From positions 1 through 42,776 of the IMG/VR virus record IMGVR_UViG_2874945390_000010: DNA of 42,776 bases; one strand, given 5' to 3'. Each line of letters opens with the position of its first letter. Position 1 is the stretch's first letter. Source of the stretch: a virus (Duplodnaviria; Heunggongvirae; Uroviricota; Caudoviricetes). This document shows, piece after piece, positions 36,601-42,600 of this stretch. Made by a program: the position numbers.

Positions 36601-39600
36601 AATGCGGCTAAGCGCACGCGGAACAGTTAAAACCAAAAACAGTGTTATGGGTGGATTCTCTGTATCCGGCGTTAATTGTTAACTGGTTAACGTCACCTGG
36701 AGGCACCAGGCACCGCATCACAAAACTCATTGTTGAGGGCGCGATAATGAAAACGTTATTACCAAACGTTAATACGTCTGAAGGTTGTTTTGAAATTGGT
36801 GTCACTATCAGTAATCCTGTATTTACTGAAGAGGCCATTAACAAAAGAAAACACGAACGGGAGTTATTAAATAAAGTATGCATTGTTTCAATGCTGGCCC
36901 GTTTACGTCTGATGCCAAAAGGATGTGCACAATGAATCCAGTATTTGCACTTATTCTGACGGTTTTTCTTGTTTCCGGAGAGCCAGTTGATATTGCAGTC
37001 AGTGTTCACAGAACAATGCAGGAATGTATGGCAGCAGCAACCGAACAGAAAATTCCAGGCAACTGTTATCCGGTCGATAAAGTTATTCACCAGGATAATA
37101 ACGAAATCCCGGCAGGATTTTAAAACAGCACCGTAATAAATATCCAGTTTCATTCTTATATGTCAGCAATGGCAGAGATTTGTTCACCCTTAAATCTGTG
37201 ATGAGGTTTATCAATAATGAGCACTGATAAAGAAGAATTTGGGTAATGACTCCAACTTACTGATAGTGTTTTATGTTCAGATAATGCCCGATGACCTTGT
37301 CATGCAGCTCCACCGATTTTGAGAACGACAGTGACTTCCGTCCCAGCCTTGCCAGATGTTGTCTCAGATTCAGATTATGTCGCTCAATGCGCTGAGTGTA
37401 ACGCTTGCTGATAACGTGCAGCTTTCCCTTCAGGCGTGATTCATACAGCGGCCAGCCATCCGTCATCCATACCACGACCTCAAAGGCCGACAGCAGGCTC
37501 AGAAGACGCTCCAGTGTGGCCAGAGTGCGTTCACCGAAGACGTGCGCCACAACCGTCCTCCGTATCCTGTCATACCGTCCTCCGTATCCTGTCATACGCG
37601 TAAAACAGCCAGCGCTGACGTGATTTAGCACCGACGTAGCCCCAATGTTCGTCCATTTCAGCGCAGACAATCACATCACTGCCCGGTTGTATGCGCGAGG
37701 TTACCGACTGCGGCCTGAGTTTTTTAAGTGACGTAAAACCGTGTTGAGGCCAACGCCCATAATGCGTGCACTGGCGCGACATCCGACGCCATTCATGGCC
37801 ATATCAATGATTTTCTGGTGCGTACCGGGCTGAGAGGCGGTGTAAGTGAACTGTAGTTGCCATGTTTTACGGCAATGAGAGCAGAGATAGCGCTGATGTC
37901 CGGCAGTGCTTTTGCCGTTACGCACCACGCCTTCAGTAGCGGAGCAGGAAGGACATCTGATGGAAATGGAAGCCACGCAAGCACCTTAAAATCACCATTA
38001 TACACTAAATCAGTAAGTTGGCAGCATTACCAGAATTTGCACTATATTGCGAAGCAAAAAATGTCAAAGTAAGAAAACGCCTAGGAATTAAAGGTGGTTT
38101 TTACTGGACTACAGCAAAAAAATTATCTGTTGCAATCTCCCGCTGCATTACCGCAATGGATGACAACGATTATGATGAAGACGACTTTAAAAAACCCGTC
38201 CGCGTCAATTTGCCCGTTGTTGACGACCTTCCGCCAGAAGGCGTGTTTGATACTGAATTCTGCAACCGCTATGAAAAAGGCGGGAAAGATGGCATCACAA
38301 TGACATTTATCGGCCCTTCCCCCTCTGTTCAGGACAAATCAGCCAGCACTGATAATACCAACATCAACGGCGAAGACATGACTGAGATTGAGGAGAGCAT
38401 GCTTCTACCTGTCTCCGGTCAGGAACTGCCCATTCGTTGGCTTGCTCAACACGGCAGCGAAAAACCAGTAACGCACGTTTCACGCGACGAACTCCAGGCA
38501 TTACACATTGCACGGGCTGAAGAACTACCGGCTGTTACTGCCCTGGCTATTTCGCATAAAACCAGTCTACTCGACTCGCTGGAGATTCGCGACCTCCACA
38601 AACTGGTTCGTGACACTGACAAAGTTTTCCCTAATCCTGGTAATTCAGACCTGGGACTAATAACTGCTTTTTTCGAAGCATACCTGGACGCTGACTACAC
38701 TGATCGGGGTCTGCTGACAAAAGAGTGGATGAAAGGAAATCGTGTTTCACGCATCACCCGCACGGCTTCCGGTGCTAATGCTGGCGGTGGGAACAAAACC
38801 GATCGCAATCCGAATTTAGTACACACCCTCGACACACTGGATGTGGAGATTGCAGCAGCCACACTTCCGATGGATTTTAATATTTATGAAATTCCGGGCA
38901 GCGTTTATCGTCGCGCAAAAGAAGTAGTCCTGAAAAAAGAAAGTCCGTTCAAAGAATGGTCCGCAGCACTTCGTGCAACCCCGGGTATTCTGGACTATTC
39001 CCGCGCCGCTATTTTTGCACTTATCCGAAGCGCACCCCCTGAATTTTATCACTACCCGGGACGCCTTCAGGGGTATATCAACGCCTATTTGACGGAAACT
39101 GATCACGAGAACCCCAGCAAGGAAACTCTCACAGCTGCCCGGCATACGCCGGAAAAAGATATCCTGGAAAAAATTAACCGCGAGGTGGTTACTGAGCGTG
39201 AAACAGAAGAAGAAAAACCACAACCATCTGACGCAATGGCAGGTGAACAGGCAACAACTGAAACAATGGAACCGGATACAACTGAACATTGCCAGAACGC
39301 GCAGTCGCTGGATGCTCAGTCGCAGGTGAGTTCCGCTAACCAAGTAAAAGTCACCGCTGACGAAGTAAACAAAATTATGCAGGCAGCCAATATCAGCCAG
39401 CCTGACGCCGATAAGTTACTTGCTGTATCGCGTGGTGAATTTGTTGAGGGGATTAGCGACCCTAATGATCCGAAATGGGTCAAGGGGATCCAGACTCGCG
39501 ATTCTGTGAACCAGAACCAGCATGAATCGGAACGGAACGACCAAAAAGCGGAACAAAACAGCCCAAATGCGTTACAAAACGAGCCAGAAACGAAACAATC

Positions 39601-42600
39601 CGAACCAGTAGCGCAACAGGAACCGGAAAAAGTCTGCACCGCCTGCGGTCAGAGCGGTGGCGGCAACTGCCCTGATTGTGGCGCGGTGATGGACGACGCA
39701 ACATACCAGAAAACATTCGATGAAGAGAATCAGGTTGAAGTTCAGGAAAATGATCCGGAGGAAATGGAAGGCGCTGAACATCCACACAAGGAGAATGCTG
39801 GCAGCGCTCAGGACCACGCCAGCGATAGTAAAACTGGCGAGACGGCAGATCCCTTAATTACGGTGAATGGTCATCACGAAATCACATCCACCAGCAGGAC
39901 GTGTGACCATCTAATGATCGACCTTGAAACCATGGGAAAAAATCCTGATGCCCCGATCATCTCAATAGGTGCAATATTTTTCGATCCGCAAACCGGAGAT
40001 ATGGGACCCGAATTTAGTAAGACTATCGATCTGGAAACTGCTGGCGGAGTCATTGATCGGGACACCATTAAATGGTGGCTTAAGCAATCACGCGAAGCGC
40101 AATCTGCCATTATGACCGATGAAATCCCGTTAGATGATGCACTGTTACAATTGCGGGAATTTATCGACGAAAACTCCGGTGAATTTTTTGTTCAGGTCTG
40201 GGGAAATGGAGCCAACTTCGACAACACGATTTTGCGCCGTTCATACGAACGGCAGGGGATCCCCTGCCCGTGGCGTTACTACAACGATCGCGATGTACGC
40301 ACAATCGTTGAGCTGGGGAAAGCCATAGACTTCGATGCCAGAACGGCTATTCCATTCGAAGGTGAGCGCCATAATGCACTTGATGACGCTCGTTACCAGG
40401 CAAAATACGTTTCAGCTATCTGGCAAAAACTGATCCCGAGTCAGGCTGATTTTTAATGTTCAACCCTAATTGCCGCTAACCGTATATAGTTAGCGGCGGT
40501 TATGAGATATAGCTATGAGCAGCTTATTTTTAACCGAAGATGAATTGCTAATATTAACGGGCTGCAAATATGCAAGCCACCAGCGAAAATGGTTAATGGA
40601 AAACGGGCTTCCGTTCTATACCAATCGTAGTGGCAAACCGATTGTCAGCCGGGATCTATTTACCTGCAATAAAACTTTACCACCACGCGAGGTAGAGCCG
40701 AATTTTGGTGCGATCTGATGGGAAGACGAAGGAAAAATCCTGAACACGAAAAATTACCTCCAAATGTATACCCAAATAAATATAGTTATGTATGGAAACC
40801 AACATCCAGAGAATCTGTAACACTAACCGCCATCAAGGATGGTTTAGCTGCTTTATGGAAAAAGTATGAGGAAACTGTAAATAATCGCGATCGTGCAATG
40901 ACATTCGGTCGCTTGTGGGAAAAATTCCTCGCCAGCGCCTATTACAGTGACCTCAGTCCAAGAACACAAAAAGATTATCTGCAACATCAAAAAAAGTTGC
41001 TTGCCGTATTCGGTAAGGTGCCGGCAGATTCCATAAAACCAGAACACATCCGTCGATACATGGACAAGAGAGGGGAACAGAGTAAAACGCAAGCCAACCA
41101 TGAAAAAAGCAGTATGTCCCGCGTTTACAGTTGGGGGTATGAGCGAGGGTACGTGAAGGCTAACCCATGTGCAGGTGTAAGTAAATTCAAGGCCAAAAAC
41201 CGCGAACGATATGTAACCGACAAAGAATACCAGGCAGTATTAAGCGTTGCACCTCTTCCTGTTTTTATCGCAATGGAAATTGCCTATCTGTGTGCAGCGA
41301 GGGTTTCCGATGTGTTATCGCTGAAATGGGAGCAGATTGGAAACGACGGGATCTTTATCCAGCAAGGGAAAACAGGAAAAAAACAGATAAAAGCATGGAG
41401 TCCACGATTACAGGCGGCGATCGAAAAAGCAAAACAGTTACCAACATCCGCCTATGTAATCAGCAATCAATACGGCAACCGATATATGTACAAAGGCTTT
41501 AACGAAATGTGGGTAGAAGCAAGAAATCGCGCAGGCAAAATTTCAGGTATTTTAACCGACTTCACCTTTCATGATCTGAAGGCGAAAGGAATTTCAGACT
41601 ATGAAGGAAGCAGTCGGGATAAGCAACTTTTCTCTGGTCACAAAACCGAGGGGCAAGTGCTAATCTATGACAGGAAGGTTAAAGTTTCACCGACACTTGA
41701 TGTCCCGTTACCTGAAAATATTCCAAGAAAATATTCCAAGTAATTCCAAGTGTGATTTTTGTCACTGACTTAATGATGTATAATTGATTGAATTTTGGCG
41801 GAGAGAGGGGGATTTGAACCCCCGGTGGAGTTGCCCCCACTCCGGTTTTCGAGACCGGTCCGTTCAGCCGCTCCGGCATCTCTCCGTTCAGATGGTTGCC
41901 ATGATGCCAAGAAATTTGGCATTTTAACAGTCCCTGTCCGTGCAATTTTGTTCAAGTGACGAGTTTGCGAGCAAAACGATGATTAAGTGGCCCTGGAAAG
42001 TACAAGAATCAGCACATCAAACTGCCCTTCCCTGGCAGGAAGCACTATCGATCCCCCTTTTAACGTGTCTGACGGAACAGGAACAAAGCAAATTAGTCAC
42101 TCTTGCCGAACGTTTTTTACAGCAAAAGCGGCTTGTTCCTTTACAGAGCTTTGAACTGGATTCATTAAGAAGCTGCCGGATAGCACTTCTATTTTGCCTA
42201 CCCGTTCTGGAGTTAGGACTGGAATGGCTGGATGGTTTTCATGAAGTCTTAATTTATCCTGCGCCATTTGTGGTCGATGATGAATGGGAAGACGATATCG
42301 GTCTGGTGCATAACCAACGTATTGTTCAGTCAGGTCAGAGCTGGCAGCAAGGGCCTATCGTTTTGAACTGGTTGGATATACAAGATTCTTTTGATGCTTC
42401 TGGTTTTAACCTGATTATTCATGAAGTCGCTCATAAGCTGGACACCCGTAACGGCGATCGCGCCAGCGGAGTTCCCTTTATTCCGTTGCGTGAGGTTGCT
42501 GGCTGGGAACACGATCTTCATGCTGCAATGAACAACATTCAGGAAGAAATCGAATTAGTTGGCGAGAATGCGGCGAGCATTGATGCTTATGCTGCCAGCG

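Follow-up and report, generated by a model that had tools for sequence, protein, structure and literature searches.

We examined a gene at positions 37217-40456 of a 42,776-nucleotide stretch of Caudoviricetes virus DNA (positions 1 to 42,776 of IMG/VR record IMGVR_UViG_2874945390_000010, hereafter the window). The gene is almost certainly a copy, interrupted by the insertion sequence (IS) IS1, of a gene widespread among lambdoid prophages of the Rac/Qin type, and its product is a chimera in which the N-terminal part of RecE (RecE-N) is followed by a linker and a DEDDh exonuclease domain. The label exonuclease VIII does not suit the gene; the right annotation is a pseudogene of the '3'-5' exonuclease / RecE-N' family, disrupted by IS1. 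Intact copies are proposed to be lytic-phase 3'-end DNA exonucleases that work with host RecBCD and RecA. As a whole, this explanation has in our judgement slightly less than an even chance of being correct.

The interrupted gene and its reconstructed product

Direct reading of the DNA showed that the interval 37217-40456 was not one open reading frame (ORF), as had been assumed in the initial annotation, and that a 790-bp IS1 lay within it. The start coordinate of that annotation was correct, and the element inserted after codon 8 had been overlooked. IS1 was bounded by terminal inverted repeats and flanked by an 8-bp target-site duplication, AGAATTTG (Table 1). When IS1 and one copy of AGAATTTG were deleted in silico, the short 5' fragment was joined in frame to the remainder of the gene, giving a single 2442-nt ORF of 813 amino acids (aa). 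Intact orthologues share the same start as the 5' fragment. The apparent product of 812 aa proved to be a frame of the ORF list (38018-40456, plus strand) whose start is a TTG within the terminal repeat of IS1, whereas the real product has 813 aa. InsA-like and InsB-like frames of IS1 were listed on the opposite strand (37257-37976).

According to Pfam, insA was intact and the transposase gene insB was split over two frames. A perfect 22-bp tandem duplication, CGTCCTCCGTATCCTGTCATAC in two copies (37554-37575 and 37576-37597), was found inside IS1. This duplication accounts both for the frameshift that divides insB into two fragments and for the length of the element, 790 bp instead of 768 bp. 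With insB split, the IS1 copy itself is probably transposition-defective. The 812-aa product with the TTG start was matched exactly by only one chromosome on record, CP026836.1 (GCA_002950135.1, 5.1 Mb). The best-matching complete E. coli genomes listed had no IS1 at the site; they aligned in two pieces, and their query coverage of 89% corresponded to the query minus IS1. Since IS1 strips the gene of its native start and ribosome-binding region and adds 790 bp of antisense IS DNA to the operon, the window copy is probably a pseudogene that is silent or strongly reduced in expression.

Domain analysis was carried out on the reconstructed 813-aa protein (37217-37241 joined to 38040-40456). Pfam PF06630 (Exonuc_VIII) matched residues 57-189 (E 7e-36). 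In BLASTP, residues 58-616 were 59% identical to residues 50-592 of Rac RecE from MG1655 (E = 0), and beyond RecE residue 592 neither BLASTP nor tblastn detected significant similarity to the protein. The nuclease domain of RecE comprises residues 564-866 (review, PMC11611040), and the break in homology coincides with its start. The NCBIfam profile NF007259 (exodeoxyribonuclease VIII) matched residues 1-616 at profile positions 1-603 of 877, with a score of 942 bits that lies below the cut-off of 1269, and no Pfam or NCBIfam match to a PD-(D/E)XK nuclease domain was obtained in the C-terminus. The first ~600 residues had been described in the initial annotation as the non-catalytic region of RecE, and both the identity over residues 58-616 and the PF06630 match agree with this. 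The prospect it had raised that the C-terminus might prove to be a canonical RecE nuclease was not borne out. Its term 'scaffold' has to be given up, since the structure model predicts with confidence that the N-terminal region folds into several domains, and no structural relative of it is known. This module (residues 10-392) is mostly helical and common to RecE.

The linker is acidic and of low complexity apart from a conserved linear motif of 20 residues (residues 472-491, corresponding to RecE 461-480). RecE, YdfE-type proteins and Klebsiella DEDDh proteins have it as well, a recurrence that suggests a short partner-binding peptide. A zinc-ribbon-like CxxC-x8-CxxC motif (residues 541-555), which gave a weak Pfam DZR match, was kept in RecE and in the YdfE-type protein of mEp460.

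The C-terminal domain belongs to the DexA/Rv2179c family. Pfam PF16473 (Rv2179c-like) matched residues 632-803 with E 8e-68; its score of 228 bits exceeded the cut-off of 27, and the match took in positions 2-177 of the 177-position profile. A weak Pfam RNase_T match was found over the same stretch. All catalytic residues were present, namely D636 and E638 (Exo I, DxE), D736 (Exo II), and H786 and D791 (Exo III, Hx4D). D636, E638, H786 and D791 were kept in 77-78 of 79 sequences taken from 80 loci of other species. D736 was invariant in alignment A1, and all five residues were invariant in alignments A1 and A2. Alignment A2, made with MAFFT, contained DexA (from the T4 genome) and six homologues; in it D7, E9, D119, H186 and D191 of DexA corresponded to D636, E638, D736, H786 and D791. 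The DnaQ/RNase T-type motifs that had been noticed in the C-terminal ~200 residues thus form a complete DEDDh set, and they are conserved in homologues, a point on which the initial annotation had left room for doubt.

By sequence, the only relatives with a solved structure were 8KEL and 8KEN, both of T4 DexA. In the AlphaFold2 model of the domain core, the block-averaged predicted local distance difference test (pLDDT) was mostly 80-92 (range 69-92). The best Foldseek match to the model was DexA 8KEL (E 3e-9, probability 1.00). Further matches were RNase T, a DnaQ domain, Cap18 of the CBASS defence system and oligoribonuclease (Orn)/REXO2 bound to pGG; RNase T, the DnaQ domain and Orn were among the top PDB matches, with probability 1.00 like DexA. 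Because profile, catalytic residues and predicted fold agree, the DEDDh assignment is secure. By analogy with the family, from which polarity and substrate are taken, the chemistry is very probably that of a 3'-5' exonuclease.

Distribution of the gene and of its N-terminal module

The RecE-N plus DEDDh architecture is abundant and already catalogued, and is not a one-off. The intact gene was common in E. coli genomes, in which it lay at the serU-mtfA site or elsewhere and is named by PGAP 'exonuclease' or '3'-5' exonuclease'. Deposited phage records (vB_EcoS-640R1 and others) carried the intact gene at 98% DNA identity under the name 'exodeoxyribonuclease VIII'. The gene falls in PHROG families annotated 'exonuclease', and both Pfam domains are already in public protein tables. 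A literature search on the Rv2179c family in prophages found no paper. What is already known, then, is the architecture, from the tables, and the phage class, from Zheng et al. 2025 (PMC12315714); the protein remains an uncharacterised variant of the RecE family.

The deposited genomes of phages mEp460, HannyBb and Tritos also contain an intact gene of this family; in these phages and in the PPompW prophages, only the C-terminal 46% of the gene was common at the DNA level. The mEp460 protein (823 aa) was near-identical from residue ~440, and its first 245 residues were unrelated. Over its first 255 residues, the mEp460-type protein shared 96% identity with the ydfE pseudogene of K-12 Qin (L090 4079-4843), which is truncated by IS2E. 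The exonuclease family is therefore mosaic, the mEp460 type carrying a YdfE-type N-terminus and the window copy a RecE-type one, and the truncation by IS2E means that the K-12 copy, which is of the other N-terminal type, is also IS-inactivated.

Neighbouring genes were surveyed in one genome per species. Of the 80 loci, 27 encoded long forms of 676-851 aa, and 51 encoded standalone forms of 182-257 aa. Among the 27 long forms, 23 had RecE-N homology, and of these 22 came from outside Escherichia, from genera that include Enterobacter, Klebsiella, Citrobacter, Kluyvera, Buttiauxella and Pluralibacter. The long forms without RecE-N were L011 and L013 (E. albertii), L012 (E. ruysiae) and L014, in which only short segments matched. 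One locus, L010, was labelled as a Veillonella metagenome-assembled genome, yet shared 97% identity with the gene of E. coli.

The long forms were accompanied by an integrase (26/27), a helix-turn-helix (HTH) repressor (27/27) and YdaT (25/27), as well as by excisionases and DnaT/DUF1376 initiators. No annealase or single-stranded DNA-binding protein (SSB) gene was found within ~6 kb upstream of or 3 genes downstream of any of them. Across genera, the fused gene keeps its place beside xis/int, in short annealase-less early-left operons of Rac/Qin type. Standalone DEDDh genes (51 loci) often lay directly downstream of genes for SSB (7), Sak4-type AAA_24 (6), DUF2303 (5), Rad52/Sak (3), Erf (2) or Arf (1). 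In 14 of the 27 long-form loci of other genera, the small gene just upstream was of the Rrf2 winged-helix family (for example L014:4087-4467) and not dicB/ydfD.

To follow the N-terminal module separately, residues 10-392 were compared with a library of representatives clustered at 50% identity, and 216 relatives were obtained; a direct protein search gave only near-identical partial E. coli entries. Representatives of 450 aa or more numbered 85, and their C-termini comprised 25 RecE-type nucleases, 14 DEDDh domains and 2 RecT domains; the other 44 had no recognisable domain there. Some of these 44 may be truncated at contig ends, and they may correspond to the nuclease-free 'RecE-2' proteins of Zheng et al. 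(PMC12315714). One RecE-N plus RecT protein, P0243 (703 aa), had Exonuc_VIII at 2-178 joined to RecT at 528-678 with no nuclease domain between them; the two representatives of this type may be real fusions or deletion products. Since RecE-N is fused variously to the RecE nuclease, DEDDh and RecT, its behaviour is that of a portable unit, and judged from sequence the pattern of fusions fits a portable targeting module.

Prophage context and Chi sites

The exonuclease gene is the last gene of a Qin-type early-left operon ahead of xis and int, in the order repressor, ydfA-C, DicF, dicB, ydfD, exonuclease gene, xis and int, of which the upstream part spans 34928-37123. The excisionase-like and integrase genes directly downstream are those that the initial annotation had named. 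The divergent early-right region encodes a Cro/DicC-like HTH protein, YdaT, an O-like protein, DUF977, an IS630-family transposase, a DUF968/HNH-like protein, RusA and Q.

Coding capacity for RecT, Bet, lambda Exo, Gam or the RecE nuclease was not detected in the window by tblastn (all E > 0.1, except for a chance 37-aa Gam match with E 0.001), and with RecE as query the sole meaningful match was the RecE-N region of the exonuclease gene. Pfam searches of the early-region ORFs, together with tblastn, revealed no RecT, Bet, Erf, Sak or SSB gene within the 42.8-kb window. A hidden annealase was rejected, as the early-region scan gave only RusA, DUF968/HNH-like, Q, O-like and YdaT. The earlier remark that the gene has no RecT partner thus holds for the window, and it extends to the 27 long-form loci of other species.

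The window contained 11 Chi sites (GCTGGTGG) where 1.6 were expected, and none of 100 shuffles reached 11. The sites span 20461-40584, with none among the tail and head genes of the first 20 kb; 8 are on the minus strand, which is the late-gene strand, and 3 on the plus strand. One site (39888-39895) falls within the linker, immediately ahead of the DEDDh domain, and another (40577-40584) in the xis-like gene.

The Rec modules of lambdoid phages were surveyed by Zheng, Casjens, Davidson, Amundsen and Smith (Genome Res 2025, PMC12315714), who reported DnaQ-like 3'-5' nucleases inside some of these modules, for example in epsilon34, as well as 'RecE-2' proteins without a nuclease domain. Phage classes without an anti-RecBCD function carry many Chi sites, and the four members of the 'Tritos' class have a nuclease but no annealase, SSB or anti-RecBCD function, with high Chi, defined as at least 4 sites on the late-gene ('top') strand (PMC12315714). 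In the window prophage a nuclease gene was present, no annealase, SSB or anti-RecBCD gene was found, and 8 Chi sites lay on the late-gene strand. By these sequence features the prophage fits the nuclease-only, annealase-less, high-Chi class of lambdoid phages of which Tritos is the prototype.

The cdt operon lies directly beyond the tail-fibre and tail-fibre-assembly genes, and the cdtC frame reaches the edge of the window. Because of this adjacency the prophage is regarded as a lambdoid prophage carrying cytolethal distending toxin (CDT). At the place equivalent to that of the prophage-borne tRNA-Met(CAT), a related prophage has tRNA-Arg and tRNA-Ile. No repeat of at least 13 bp of the tRNA-Ser region, as expected for a second att site, was found within the window; the other end of the prophage lies past the left edge. 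With a second IS in its early-right region and an IS1 that is itself defective, the prophage is decaying.

Table 1. Features of the window, with positions, strands and supporting evidence.
Feature	Position	Strand	Remarks
Exonuclease gene, 5' fragment	37217-37241	+	ATG, codons 1-8 and first base of codon 9; MSTDKEEF
Exonuclease gene, remainder	38040-40456	+	Codon 9 to stop
IS1	37242-38031	minus	790 bp; sequence read, Pfam InsA and DDE_Tnp_IS1 matches
IS1 terminal inverted repeats			GGTAATGAC... and ...CATTACC; sequence read
IS1 target-site duplication	37234-37241 (left copy), 38032-38039 (right copy)		AGAATTTG, 8 bp; sequence read
insA of IS1	37701-37976	minus	Intact; Pfam PF03811 and PF12759
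Folded N-terminal module, residues 10-392	38042-39190	+	Common to RecE; predicted mostly helical, multi-domain
Rac RecE-homologous region, residues 58-616	38186-39862	+	BLASTP, tblastn
20-residue linear motif, residues 472-491	39428-39487	+	In acidic linker; also RecE 461-480
CxxC-x8-CxxC zinc-ribbon-like motif, residues 541-555	39635-39679	+	Weak Pfam DZR match
DEDDh 3'-5' exonuclease domain, DexA/Rv2179c family, residues 632-803	39908-40423	+	Pfam, AlphaFold2/Foldseek, motifs
DicA-like repressor	34928-35347	+	Qin-type early-left operon
ydfA-like (DUF1391), ydfB-like and ydfC-like ORFs	Between repressor and DicF	+	Early-left operon
DicF small RNA, full-length	36521-36572	+	Rfam RF00039, 76.7 bits; between ydfC-like ORF and dicB, as in K-12 Qin
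dicB	36747-36935	+	
ydfD	36932-37123	+	
DUF4224 excisionase-like (xis-like) gene	40515-40718	+	Pfam
Tyrosine integrase	40718-41743	+	
tRNA-Ser(CGA) integration site	41796-41885	minus	Followed by host mtfA
IS630-family transposase (DDE_3 and HTH)	30383-31414	+	Early-right/nin region; second IS of the prophage
Prophage-borne tRNA-Met(CAT)	26220-26295	minus	Between lysis region and Q antiterminator gene
Two ORFs with TolA C-terminal domains	24784-25179, 25330-25758	minus	Adjoin lysis genes; same annotation in related prophages
cdtC-cdtB-cdtA, cytolethal distending toxin operon	1-2215	minus	CDtoxinA/C, Exo_endo_phos and CDtoxinA/C domains

Roles proposed for intact copies and comparison with known systems

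Intact copies would produce a Mg2+-dependent 3'-to-5' exonuclease during lytic growth. The RecE-N module would bring the exonuclease to the same partner or DNA-end substrate as RecE, and the enzyme would act on the 3' ends of phage or host DNA with host RecBCD and RecA, not as one half of a two-component recombinase. Action with the host enzymes is proposed because these phages have no annealase of their own. The gene occupies the position of recE, and the standalone DEDDh copies beside SSB and annealase genes count toward a link with recombination. No plus-strand promoter-like site was found in the 93 bp between ydfD and the start of the exonuclease gene, and lytic-phase expression would follow from its place in a repressor-controlled operon. 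From sequence and gene order, we put a DNA-end or recombination-linked role, as opposed to defence or scavenging, at rather less than an even chance.

Several points weigh against this explanation. The Chi density of the window (~1 per 3.9 kb) is similar to the average of the E. coli chromosome, which shows host-like content rather than a specific link to the exonuclease gene. The Rv2179c family is named for an exoribonuclease, the structural neighbours found with Foldseek include RNase T and Orn/REXO2, and by analogy the enzyme might act on RNA or on short oligonucleotides. Some expression of the window copy past IS1, by read-through or from in-frame TTG or ATG codons, may be left. In addition, 3'-5' exonucleases remove the 3' tails needed for recombination and usually inhibit it, and sporadic int-proximal genes of DnaQ type were explicitly not counted as members of Rec modules (PMC12315714).

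Among the alternatives, a role in turnover is unlikely. By analogy, the enzyme would convert oligonucleotides to mononucleotides in lytic growth, either scavenging host DNA as DexA does or acting on short RNAs like Orn, NrnC and Rv2179c, or it would remove signal nucleotides or immune DNA or RNA products as an anti-defence function. The closest solved relative is T4 DexA, and the other structural matches are RNase T, Orn/REXO2 bound to pGG and CBASS Cap18; the exoribonuclease name of the Pfam family and an operon position suited to lytic-growth expression point the same way. However, a scavenger would have no obvious need for a RecE-derived module of 600 residues or for a fusion conserved across genera, and standalone copies are associated with SSB and annealase genes, not with nucleotide-metabolism genes. 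To our knowledge, temperate lambdoid phages do not degrade host DNA wholesale.

A bolder version of the recombination-linked explanation can be built on the fusions described above, and we doubt that it is correct. In it, RecE-N would be an autonomous targeting module swapped among PD-(D/E)XK, DEDDh and RecT. The DEDDh form would not be a degenerate RecET; it would represent a new 3'-end-editing phage function of annealase-less, Chi-rich Rac/Qin-type phages, which would steer or exploit the RecBCD-Chi recombination of the host, or would disable a host system dependent on 3' ends.

It is quite unlikely, again by analogy, that the gene serves defence or superinfection exclusion, with the DEDDh domain destroying the 5-hydroxymethylcytosine (5hmC)-containing DNA of competing T-even phages or the 3' ends of RNA phages, and with RecE-N as an auxiliary or targeting domain. 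The domain is a DexA homologue, as is EcD (HREX), a standalone E. coli protein reported to degrade 5hmC DNA and to protect against T4 (PMC12153337). Prophage DEDDh (TONDO) exonucleases with variable auxiliary domains restrict MS2 and Qbeta (PMC13344964, a 2026 preprint), and the gene lies at the prophage end, where accessory genes are common. On the other hand, it stands inside the repressor-controlled early-left operon behind the promoter-free gap after ydfD, and since it has no promoter-like site of its own there, expression in the uninduced lysogen is not expected. The best PADLOC match, to a generic exonuclease effector, had E 0.03 over 23 residues and is not meaningful, and the TONDO search covered only proteins of <500 aa.

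EcD, moreover, belongs to another, more distant subfamily, so its phenotype is not simply transferable. Its primer-derived termini, MIDTET... and ...TIPETYD, were absent from all fetched proteins and loci, which rules out its presence among the collected homologues. The Nucleic Acids Research 2025 paper in which the DexA structure was solved defined EcD by the replacement of D90 by Ala, with loss of a tetramer contact, and by the retention of D169 (PMC12153337). In the window protein the D90-to-Ala hallmark is absent and Asp is kept, and D169 of DexA, the residue proposed for 5hmC recognition, aligns to Ala in alignment A2, a soft result because the position borders a gap. Finally, the names 'exodeoxyribonuclease VIII' and 'RecE family exodeoxyribonuclease', frequent in database records, would suit a canonical RecE with a misread C-terminus and a RecT elsewhere, and this is refuted by the missed NCBIfam cut-off, the end of homology at residue 592, the lack of PD-(D/E)XK and RecT matches and the DEDDh match of E 8e-68, leaving it practically no chance.

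If intact copies are active, the N-terminal two-thirds of RecE would be a reusable module attached to enzymes of opposite polarity. They would then offer a handle on what the RecE-N module binds and would clarify recombination-dependent replication in lambdoid phages without their own annealase, which form a sizeable group. Full-length RecE matters in the linear-linear recombineering assay. The window itself is a decaying, IS-ridden, CDT-carrying prophage with a broken copy of a catalogued gene family.

RecE of Rac has the same PF06630 region and the same acidic linker, together with the motif that starts SRGEFV(E/D) and the CxxC...CxxC zinc ribbon. It differs in its C-terminus, a PD-(D/E)XK 5'-3' double-stranded DNA exonuclease where the window protein has a DEDDh 3'-5' exonuclease, and in its neighbours recT, ralR and rcbA, none of which is present at the window locus. 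Given the missing domain, the window protein is not expected to have 5'-3' exonuclease activity on double-stranded DNA. The sole effect stated for the N-terminal domain of RecE is an enhancement of linear-linear recombination (PMC11611040).

T4 DexA and the window domain are ~27% identical across the whole domain, with the same fold and the five catalytic residues in common. DexA is a standalone protein of 227 aa from a virulent phage, whereas the window domain forms the C-terminal end of a protein of 813 aa in a temperate phage, and DexA has two insertions that are missing from the window domain. EcD/HREX is likewise a DexA-family DEDDh exonuclease found in E. coli genomes, but it is standalone and of the other subfamily.

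The Tritos phage gene contains the C-terminal 46% of the window gene at 96% DNA identity, and the 8 + 3 Chi sites of the window prophage are within the range tabulated for the Tritos class. Tritos, mEp460 and HannyBb have a YdfE-type N-terminal part of 245 residues, whereas that of the window copy is of RecE type. The fusion architecture of the window gene falls outside the analysis of Zheng et al. (PMC12315714).

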